Assembly (NCBI GenBank): GCA_023150455.1 | Contig: JAKLKW010000026.1 | Coordinates: 41,982 to 105,981, forward strand | From: Alphaproteobacteria bacterium | Lineage (GTDB): Bacteria; Pseudomonadota; Alphaproteobacteria; JAEULC01 | Direction: 5' to 3' | DNA length: 64,000 bases | Shown here: piece after piece, positions 24,007 to 24,800 of the stretch | Numbering within the stretch: the stretch's first letter is position 1 | Layout of the letters: every line of letters begins with the position of its first letter | Position numbers and translations under genes: made by a program | Notes under the pieces: model-generated | What the model was told of the DNA's origin: nothing | The model's database searches: none | The model's input: the letters and a program-made list of their open reading frames with translations, nothing else

Positions 24007-24081
24007 GCGGGAGTAGCTCAGGGGTAGAGCATCACGTTGCCAACGTGAGGGTCGCGGGTTCAAATCCCGTCTCCCGCTCCA
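24007..24081 (+). tRNA. tRNA-Gly (anticodon GCC)
   Basis: 75-nt cloverleaf with anticodon loop TTGCCAA, T-loop GGTTCAAATCC and an encoded CCA. Confidence 0.9.
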
Positions 24082-24143
24082 GTTCATCGGCCCCACCCTA
24101 ACCCAACGCAAGCCTGGTTCCGGGCTACCGCGCCGCCATTCGG

Positions 24144-24694
24144 GTGCCGGTCGCAAGGCGGTGTGCGTGCGTGGTCGCACTCGCCGCCCTGGTCGGGTTC
24201 GCGGTCGTCGTCGCCCATCCCGCGCAGGCGGCGGCGGGCCGCTGCCAGGACATCCCGGGCGTCTGGTCCTGGTTCGACGGGCACACGGTTACGCTGTCGC
24301 GCGACGGCGCGCTGGCGGCGACCAACCTGGGCAACTACTTGATGGAAGGAGACACCCCGCGCTGACCGAGCTCGCCCTCGGCGAAGCGTGCGAACGCGTC
24401 GCCAAGATCGCGGCATCGAGATATTGGGCGCCATTCACCATCCCCGACCTGAAGCTGATGGGCGAAATGATCGACGTGGCGCGCAAGCGGGGCACGGCGA
24501 AGTTGGCCCAGGGTACGCGAATCACCGACCGCTGGACCAAGGCCGATTTCATGCTCGACGCGCTGTCCTATGGACAGAGGTCCTGGCCGCGCAGCCTGCG
24601 CTACCTGGAAACCGCCATGAAGGCGGCGCCCAAGGATCCGCGGCTGCGCGAGGCCTATGACGAGCTGTCCGCGATCGCGGCGAGCGCCATGTGA
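24144..24694 (+). pseudogene. Secreted hypothetical protein, apparently disrupted by a -1 frameshift in a C-run near 24357
   Basis: Frame 0 gives a signal peptide plus 50 aa that end in TGA. The shifted frame continues as a 110-aa non-repetitive region (ALTELALGEACERV...) that has no plausible own start. Confidence 0.4.
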
Positions 24695-24747
24695 CGAGTT
24701 GCGCCGCGAACCGAATTCTTCAGTCCGCCAAGTAGGGCACGCTGAGC

Positions 24748-24800
24748 CACCTTCCCATTGCCAACGGCAACACGCCGGGTTCAAATCCGGGCCCCGCTCC
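24748..24800 (+). repeat. Degenerate direct repeat of the 3' half of tRNA-Gly (att-site-like scar)
   Basis: It shares TTGCCAA, GGGTTCAAATCC and CCCGCTCC with the intact tRNA-Gly about 720 bp upstream. It lacks a 5' half and a CCA. Confidence 0.5.

Follow-up and report, generated by a model that had tools for sequence, protein, structure and literature searches.

The locus described here raises the question whether a broken copy of a tRNA-Gly gene, lying about 720 bp downstream of the intact gene, marks the place where foreign DNA was once integrated, and which of the neighbouring genes came with it. The window, as we call the whole stretch of 64 kb that was analysed, has a G+C content of 69.5% and belongs to an alphaproteobacterium whose relatives in our searches are labelled as uncultured Rhodospirillaceae MAGs. 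Our best explanation is that the fragment is probably an attR-type scar of a site-specific integration at tRNA-Gly(GCC) and that what stands between tRNA and scar is an integrase-less remnant. The event would probably date back to the common ancestor of certain uncultured, Rhodospirillaceae-like alphaproteobacteria which form a small tip clade. The features of the locus are collected in Table 1.

Table 1: Features of the tRNA-Gly locus, in positions of the window.
Feature	Position	Strand	Basis or remark
Promoter-like pair TTGCAA-N16-TATGAT upstream of tRNA-Gly	23927–23954	+	Consensus scan; putative
tRNA-Gly(GCC), intact	24007–24081	+	ARAGORN; Rfam tRNA 71.2 bits
Non-coding left junction, directly 3' of tRNA-Gly	24082–24143		Homology to L009 stops at 24092
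First reading frame of the remnant gene	24144–24365	+	GC3 0.90–0.95; TGA at 24363–24365
Frameshift site	24352–24360	+	One base fewer than in L011: gaccatccGgcgctgacc versus gacaccccg-cgctgacc
Second reading frame of the remnant gene, C-terminal 109 codons	24365–24694	+	GC3 0.82–0.88
Fast-diverging spacer from the remnant stop codon to the fragment	24695–24752		43–47% identity to L011, effectively unalignable
Displaced copy of tRNA-Gly positions 27–75, attR-like scar	24753–24800	+	Local alignment, repeat search
Weak sigma-70-like pair TTGCCA (24758–24763), N17, TCAAAT (24781–24786), pointing into the MFS gene	24758–24786	+	By sequence; hypothetical
MFS transporter gene, resident 3' of tRNA-Gly	24801–26096	+	Pfam MFS_1 3.2e-33

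In order to judge the fragment against its background, the tRNA-Gly was locally aligned to both strands of all 150-nt tiles of the window. The fragment reached a score of 21 and the best match on any other window sequence a score of 14, with only the palindromic reverse strand of the tRNA-Gly gene itself (17) in between. It is co-linear with the gene and on the same strand, and its 48 nt cover the anticodon arm, the variable region, the T arm and the 3' acceptor strand with one gap and 36/50 identical positions. A repeat finder returned two exact or near-exact blocks, TC.C.TTGCCAACG and CGGGTTCAAATCC, and as both of them, from the anticodon region and the T arm, are spaced 721 nt start to start from their tRNA counterparts, the fragment lies in register with the gene. 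The sequence GGGTTCAAATCC occurs only at 24056 and 24777 in the 64 kb, with 0.2 occurrences expected, and no other partial copy of the tRNA-Gly was found in the window on either strand. The degenerate 3' copy described in the original prediction is thus borne out by alignment score and register, although its placement at 24748–24800 is not, the best bounds being those given in Table 1. Its lack of a 5' half was confirmed as well, for the 40 nt 5' of the fragment gave no signal against tRNA positions 1–26 in the window or in L011, aligning no better than 38% (window) and 70% (L011) of random genomic 40-mers. The acceptor 5' strand and the D arm of a full cloverleaf are accordingly missing, and mismatches are present in both the T stem and the anticodon stem. 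As anticipated, the fragment was not called a tRNA by ARAGORN nor by Rfam at E ≤ 10, and the one further tRNA of the window is a tRNA-Val(GAC) at 21940–22014 on the plus strand (ARAGORN). Judged from these alignments the fragment is evidently a genuine displaced 3' tDNA copy, and it lies on the side and in the orientation that an attL/attR pair should have.

The distribution of differences within the fragment was analysed in three genomes which carry it (the window, L011 and L023) by aligning the fragments to the tRNA-Gly, taking the tRNA as outgroup and reconstructing the ancestral fragment by parsimony. The ancestor does not differ from the tRNA at any of the 27 positions from 50 to 76, and it differs at nine of the 23 positions from 27 to 49 (positions 29, 31, 41, 42, 44, 46, 47, 48 and 49; 14/23 identical), the hypergeometric probability of finding all nine differences within the first 23 of 50 positions being 3.3e-4. 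The five changes inside the 50–76 block of the present window copy are later, and such later changes are lineage-specific and clustered in the 3' strand of the T stem. In L011 and L023 the anticodon-stem pairs 28-42 and 29-41 have changed on both sides with pairing kept. A 27-nt identity block beside a diverged tRNA-like arm, here TGCC(G/A)TTGCCAACGGCA, fits the pattern of an att site whose heterologous arm may come from the element, and an identity block spanning T stem to 3' end defines the T-stem-region class of Islander (PMC4383910). The same pattern bears on the possibility that the whole tRNA-Gly was duplicated in tandem and that the copy became a pseudogene with its 5' half eroded past recognition. 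Duplication of tRNA genes is frequent, the clade does have a second tRNA-Gly(GCC) elsewhere, and in being a tRNA-derived sequence near its parent gene and on the same strand the fragment resembles the pseudogenes that arise in this way. It is unlike them in comprising positions 27–75 only, with the 5' half undetectable in the window and in L011, and in its block-like differences; as none of these falls in the ancestral 50–76, uniform decay of a duplicate would not give the pattern. Moreover, the DNA in between is unrelated to the surroundings of the tRNA, and the relatives with an empty site possess a single tRNA at the locus, so that we regard a tandem duplication as highly improbable. We also considered whether the tRNA-like fold might be conserved as an RNA. 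This was rejected as the T-stem pairing differs among the three genomes and is imperfect in all three of them, and from these sequences a structural role as a tRNA mimic seems unlikely.

Relatives were collected using as anchors the methyltransferase gene upstream of the tRNA-Gly and a graded series of MFS orthologues together with their contigs. The tRNA-Gly itself is identical at 75/75 positions in L009, L010, L016, L018 and L021. In L010, L016, L017 and L018, whose MFS is 69% identical to that of the window, the identical tRNA-Gly is followed by 86 nt and then by the MFS gene with the fragment absent, and L021 (71%) shows the same empty arrangement. The unoccupied site sought after the original prediction was therefore found in L010, L016 and L018 and in L021, and since insert and fragment are absent from these genomes the arrangement is not universal in the family. 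Remnant gene and fragment were found in the window species (8/8 assemblies), in L011 and L012 (MFS 89%; fragment score 27) and in L023, a partial contig for which the MFS identity was not scored. Other lineages hold other DNA between tRNA-Gly and MFS, namely a TacA-TacT pair in L014 and L015 (77%, fragment absent), a globin gene in L019 and L020 (62%) and an AhpC gene in the P0017 contig (64%), while L013 (83%) has another upstream gene and no tRNA. That the interval takes up small cargo of different kinds in different lineages speaks for an insertion here; on the other hand, none of these other cargo types comes with a tRNA fragment and they may reflect plain gene gain or loss. In the MFS tree, the genomes that carry the fragment group together as a tip clade, below which the empty-site and the other fragment-free genomes branch, and the insert is thus the derived state. 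The case also shows that comparative genomics can date and polarise a tRNA fragment even where no integrase accompanies it.

The same comparison decides which genes are cargo. It had been proposed as an alternative that the flanking MFS/DUF62 module was brought in and that the repeat marks its upstream border. This is refuted by synteny, as the MFS gene and the genes downstream of it keep their place beside tRNA-Gly in the relatives: the order MFS, DMGDH-like, choline-kinase-like and thioredoxin-domain gene after the tRNA is kept down to 62% MFS identity, and the empty sites are flanked by aminotransferase and FGase genes on one side and by the DMGDH-like, choline-kinase-like and thioredoxin-domain genes on the other. 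Going by gene order, MFS and the genes downstream of it are clearly to be taken as residents and not as cargo. The promoter-like sequence upstream of tRNA-Gly is likewise found 5' of the gene in L009 and L010.

What is enclosed between tRNA and fragment is one broken gene. A GC3 frame plot shows the coding frame shifting at about 24360, from the first reading frame to the one ending at 24694, and both L011 and the wider protein family read uninterrupted across this switch. As eight independent Logan assemblies of the species share this split, it is not a sequencing error. The first frame has a signal-peptide-like start followed by a TPR-like C-terminal domain from about 24290, and homology to L011 and to the proteins P0122 and P0125 starts at about 24276–24297 (tblastn, alignment). 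The preceding ~200 nt (24093–24295), which include the signal-peptide-like start and carry a strong GC3 signal, are unique to the species, with a counterpart neither in L011 nor in the databases searched. The second frame is 72% identical to L011 on the amino acid level. A word-indexed search of 5.8 billion proteins with the fused small protein returned no homologues, and it took an exhaustive HMMER search to find the family; queried with the C-terminal 109 residues, this gave 39 proteins, and the best long matches, P0122–P0126 (328–497 aa, E 1.6e-19 to 8.3e-14), align via their C-termini only. These members have signal peptides and weak TPR matches, and by tblastn the window and L011 hold only the last ~135 codons of a family of 380–500 aa. 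PHROGs gave no match to the family and NCBIfam nothing informative, relatives of the small gene were found neither in the JGI metagenome contigs nor in IMG/VR, and tblastx of the insert and the L009 tail yielded GC-rich noise only. In L022 a full-length member is found among ordinary chromosomal genes. The enclosed frameshifted gene for a small secreted protein, as originally described, therefore stands with regard to the frameshift and falls with regard to its completeness: to judge from its homologues it encodes only the C-terminal third of a secreted TPR-like protein, apparently joined to a signal-peptide-like start. This truncated content, shared by the window and L011, looks like the leftover of an insert. 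Its dN/dS is 0.33–0.37 (against L011 and L023), compared to 0.12–0.18 for the MFS gene, and this moderate constraint indicates that the decay is recent and not ancient.

For L011 and L023 the two sides of the fragment tell different histories. By their MFS genes, with a dS of 0.05 and no amino acid change in 170 codons, they are almost one strain, whereas in the remnant gene dS is 0.63 and dN 0.23, a distance like that between species. Sliding identity, about 0.5 up to the left edge of the fragment, rises there to 0.93 and reaches 0.97–1.00 in MFS, a mosaic which rests on a single 1-kb metagenome contig, L023. This jump shows that the segment left of the fragment has a history separate from that of the MFS side, as would be expected for an exchangeable insert.

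The clade has a second tRNA-Gly locus. There, the order is YbaK, tRNA-Gly, SPOR and GDH, and the tRNA-Gly (copy A, seen in L024 and L025) differs from that of our locus (copy B) at 2–4 positions. Since the fragment has A58 as copy B does, and copy A has G58, it does not stem from the second locus. Because there are two tRNA-Gly copies, many short contigs break inside this gene, and one join gave a false lead. The closest relative, L009, continues with unrelated DNA right after its tRNA-Gly and first appeared as a second island at a hot spot. Its tail is, however, the conserved second tRNA-Gly locus (94% identical to L024) and holds a SPOR-lipoprotein gene with graded orthologues, which in L024 and L025 stands downstream of the second tRNA-Gly(GCC). 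On this evidence L009 appears to be the product of a chimeric assembly or of a tRNA-to-tRNA rearrangement. The second copy of the gene can therefore break or misjoin metagenome assemblies, in this instance mimicking a strain-specific island.

Genes for an integrase, an excisionase, phage proteins or conjugation were found neither in the interval nor in the 64-kb window, where the Pfam scan covered the major ORFs from 16 to 64 kb and identified housekeeping and metabolic genes; the wider search for a further partial repeat and for an integrase thus returned neither of them across the window. One transposase of the IS1595 family is encoded at 38868–39770 and is unrelated to the locus. No source element was detected in the viral and metagenome collections (JGI metagenome contigs, IMG/VR), and the arm pattern of the fragment had no other occurrence there. 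The 17-mer TGCCRTTGCCAACGGCA did give 52 viral matches, none of them in a tRNA-like context, and these were dismissed as chance matches. With no mobility gene in the window and no source element, we infer an integrase-mediated origin from the repeat anatomy only, with a tyrosine integrase as the maker of the insertion and an insert that was once much larger. The decayed island remnant of the original prediction is accordingly supported by repeat anatomy, empty site, polarity and identity pattern and finds no support in mobility genes.

The right junction also departs from a textbook product. The fragment ends 0 nt from the MFS start if this is GTG 24801, whose counterpart in L023 is ATG, or 18 nt from it if it is TTG 24819 (the gene calls being 431 aa and 425 aa), and the empty sites have 86 nt. 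This native spacer can be made out neither to the left nor to the right of the insert, the similarity of 24082–24143 to it being not significant, and a distance of 0–18 nt in place of the undetectable 86-nt spacer does not fit a clean integration into a site like that of L010. Several candidate traces were discarded. Pieces of the native spacer (the motif CCCCACC, CATTGCC and GGCGCAAGCC) can be placed beside the tRNA or the fragment, but a proportion of 0.04–0.94 of dinucleotide shuffles scores as high; a Campbell-type duplication of the spacer and the MFS 5' end is not seen, as 24082–24300 and 24801–25020 have no significant similarity; and an inverted repeat (24299–24318 and 24842–24861) is complementary at 18/20 positions, but is equalled by 12% of shuffles.

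An integrase-independent origin has to be weighed as well. Gene transfer followed by illegitimate or homologous recombination could have pasted between tRNA-Gly and MFS a chromosomal piece that consisted of the 3' end of a TPR-like gene and part of another tRNA-Gly locus or that of a relative, so that the tRNA-like fragment would simply have come along with the import. This would agree with a window that has no integrase, with a cargo family that is chromosomal and not phage-like, with at least two tRNA-Gly(GCC) loci in the clade which could recombine or be confused, with the phylogenetic incongruence, which shows homologous exchange at the locus, and with a right junction that does not match a clean att product. 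However, a 3' block that is perfect over 27 nt and borders on a diverged arm, the orientation and the register are all predicted by site-specific integration and not required by random pasting. Position 58 of the fragment follows copy B and not copy A, and its arm was seen in no tRNA-like context in the collections searched. We consider this origin unlikely, both with regard to the pasted piece itself and to the recombination route by which it would have arrived.

For the preferred explanation, a site-specific integration, the following course can be proposed. Foreign or translocated DNA would have integrated at the 3' part of tRNA-Gly(GCC) in the common ancestor of the tip clade. A complete tRNA gene would have been regenerated at the left end, so that the present tRNA-Gly, copy B of at least two in the clade, is probably the regenerated target on the attL side, and the tRNA 3' copy would have been displaced to the right end, immediately 5' of the resident MFS gene. 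The identity block would have extended from the T stem to the 3' end, with at least 27 nt, and the anticodon-arm-like stretch would never have been identical to the resident tRNA, being most likely a tRNA-like arm of the element's attP. Nearly all of the DNA between the ends would have been lost later, leaving about 0.67 kb in the window species, namely the C-terminal third of the secreted TPR-like gene with its signal-peptide-like start, presumably broken by the 1-nt deletion only recently. The scar would have no required function now and would still divide a fast-changing, recombining segment from the stable MFS side.

The features by which Islander recognises tDNA islands are present to a large extent, since the locus shows a regenerated tRNA, a downstream same-strand 3' fragment, an identity block and an insert absent in relatives; a tyrosine integrase in the interval is what it lacks. 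Islander maps such islands by the orientation of the fragment and its side relative to the tDNA (PMC4383910). Like tDNA islands and prophages in Islander, the locus combines an intact tRNA with a cognate same-strand 3' fragment downstream, it shares with the T-stem-region class an identity block from the T stem to the 3' end, and its insert is absent from relatives that have a clean junction between tRNA and neighbour. In contrast to them, it has no integrase or mobility genes, its interval measures 0.72 kb instead of kilobases to hundreds of kilobases, its fragment is 72% identical instead of near-perfect, and its right flank is without the native 86-nt spacer. Williams (2002) is said to have distinguished sublocation classes of tDNA integration. 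Degraded remnants of islands or prophages that have no integrase, known as 'genomic islets', also occur beside tRNA genes. The locus agrees with these in its short truncated cargo between tDNA and a decayed direct repeat and in its variation among close relatives, with small accessory cassettes such as the TacAT toxin-antitoxin pair in sister lineages. It differs from them in that what survives of the cargo comes from a chromosomal TPR-like family and not from recognisable phage or ICE genes, and in that the remnant is under moderate purifying selection (dN/dS about 0.35). Thus, the locus is not an Islander-type island; it is the relic of one or of a similar event. As such it is a known kind of feature and an ordinary relic, unless the fragment drives the MFS gene.

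This last case would be compatible with either origin: the fragment may have been kept as promoter and/or 5' leader of MFS. The hexamers of the sigma-70-like pair agree with the consensus at 5/6 (TTGCCA) and 4/6 (TCAAAT) positions with a 17-nt spacing. Between window and L011 a stretch of 34 nt, CCATTGCCAACGGCAA.ACGCCGGGTTCAAATCC, is 33/34 identical, at a synonymous divergence of about 34% and with the 60 nt upstream unalignable, which corresponds to a probability of about 1e-5 before correction for the post-hoc choice of the stretch. Both hexamers and their spacing are invariant in the window, L011 and L023, and about 20 substitutions or indels have accumulated in the other 38 positions. The insertion also cut MFS off from what drives it in the empty-site genomes, and the GTG or ATG start codon of MFS directly abuts the fragment. 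On the other hand, the A expected at position 2 of a -10 hexamer is missing from TCAAAT, which was not called by the consensus scan, as this requires that A. The loops would be just as conserved in an arm derived from a functional foreign tRNA, and L011 and L023 are not independent here, the probability being about 0.05 when only changes after the ancestor are counted. A promoter or leader function is therefore, in our view, quite unlikely. The same low expectation applies to the bolder combination in which the anticodon and T loops were co-opted as promoter or leader of MFS and the pair of tRNA-Gly and fragment still anchors the swapping of cassette alleles among close strains. If the fragment does drive MFS, the locus would clearly exemplify how a regulatory element can be recruited from an integration scar.

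For the annotation of this and related genomes, the two small ORFs within 24144–24694 should be read as one broken remnant and not as two genes, and the MFS gene begins right where the tRNA-derived sequence ends.

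Comparing two relatives' contigs that both carry the displaced tRNA-Gly fragment, L011 (395-1400) and the 1-kb metagenome contig L023 (1-1001), we found the MFS gene to be nearly identical (dS 0.05), whereas the remnant gene adjoining it has a dS of 0.63, a divergence like that between separate species. The change from diverged to near-identical sequence coincides with the left boundary of the displaced fragment, and this phylogenetic incongruence points to recombination at the tRNA-Gly/MFS locus.

The clade also possesses a second tRNA-Gly(GCC) locus with the gene order YbaK/tRNA_edit, tRNA-Gly, SPOR lipoprotein and NAD-glutamate dehydrogenase, whose tRNA is identical to the window copy at 73 of 75 positions. 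In L009, a MAG contig from the closest relative, the window-type upstream flank passes into the second locus precisely where the tRNA ends on its 3' side; the join is therefore a chimera of the assembly or else a genuine rearrangement between the two tRNA genes. Breaks within tRNA-Gly are found in many short contigs.

In a relative of 77% identity (L014/L015) the interval between tRNA-Gly and MFS is filled by the antitoxin TacA together with a GNAT toxin resembling TacT, and the tRNA fragment is absent from this interval. Downstream of MFS, the DUF62 gene is present in the window, L011, L013, L014 and the empty-site relatives L010/L016. L019, L021 and the P0017 contig lack it: in them the next gene after MFS lies on the minus strand, and in L019 and the P0017 contig that gene is DMGDH-like. 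The difference represents a separate gain or loss.

The GTG start of MFS (24801) directly adjoins the tRNA fragment, within which a weak sigma-70-like pair, TTGCCA-N17-TCAAAT, is directed into the MFS gene. Both hexamers are unchanged across three genomes, and the intact tRNA gene contains the same motif. Another promoter-like pair, TTGCAA-N16-TATGAT, lies about 50 nt 5' of tRNA-Gly and is also kept in L009 and L010. Fused 5' of the TPR-like remnant is the beginning of an ORF that resembles a signal peptide and shows a strong GC3 signature of coding sequence; this beginning is unique to the window species and had no homologue in any search made.

Features of the window and of relatives' contigs
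Feature	Sequence	Position	Strand
Second-locus tRNA-Gly(GCC)	L024	4579-4653	
Second-locus tRNA-Gly(GCC)	L025	4732-4806	
Second-locus-type stretch	L009	11741-12569	
TacA + GNAT (TacT-like) pair	L014	219-1084	
TacA + GNAT (TacT-like) pair	L015	242-1107	
TTGCAA-N16-TATGAT	window	23927-23954	+
Signal-peptide-like ORF start	window	24093-24295	
TTGCCA-N17-TCAAAT	window	24758-24786	
SAM hydroxide adenosyltransferase/(R)-SAM hydrolase-like (DUF62) gene	window	26097-26828	+
RiPP-type gene cluster, including DUF2063 partner gene	window	32525-34549	-
MbnB/TglH/ChrH-type (MNIO) enzyme gene	window	33355-34197	-
82-aa ORF just upstream of MNIO enzyme gene	window	34301-34549	-
IS1595-family transposase gene (DDE_Tnp_IS1595 + zinc ribbon)	window	38868-39770	+
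Tandem pair of M48 peptidase paralogues (494 and 496 aa), then HAMP-adenylate/guanylate cyclase gene	window	42512-45591	+

Elsewhere in the window, the MNIO and DUF2063 genes form a RiPP-type gene cluster that is kept in L011, L016 and L019; the 82-aa ORF, for which no Pfam match was obtained, is a possible precursor. The IS1595-family transposase gene, the only mobile-element gene seen within the window, has a GC3 below that of its neighbours.
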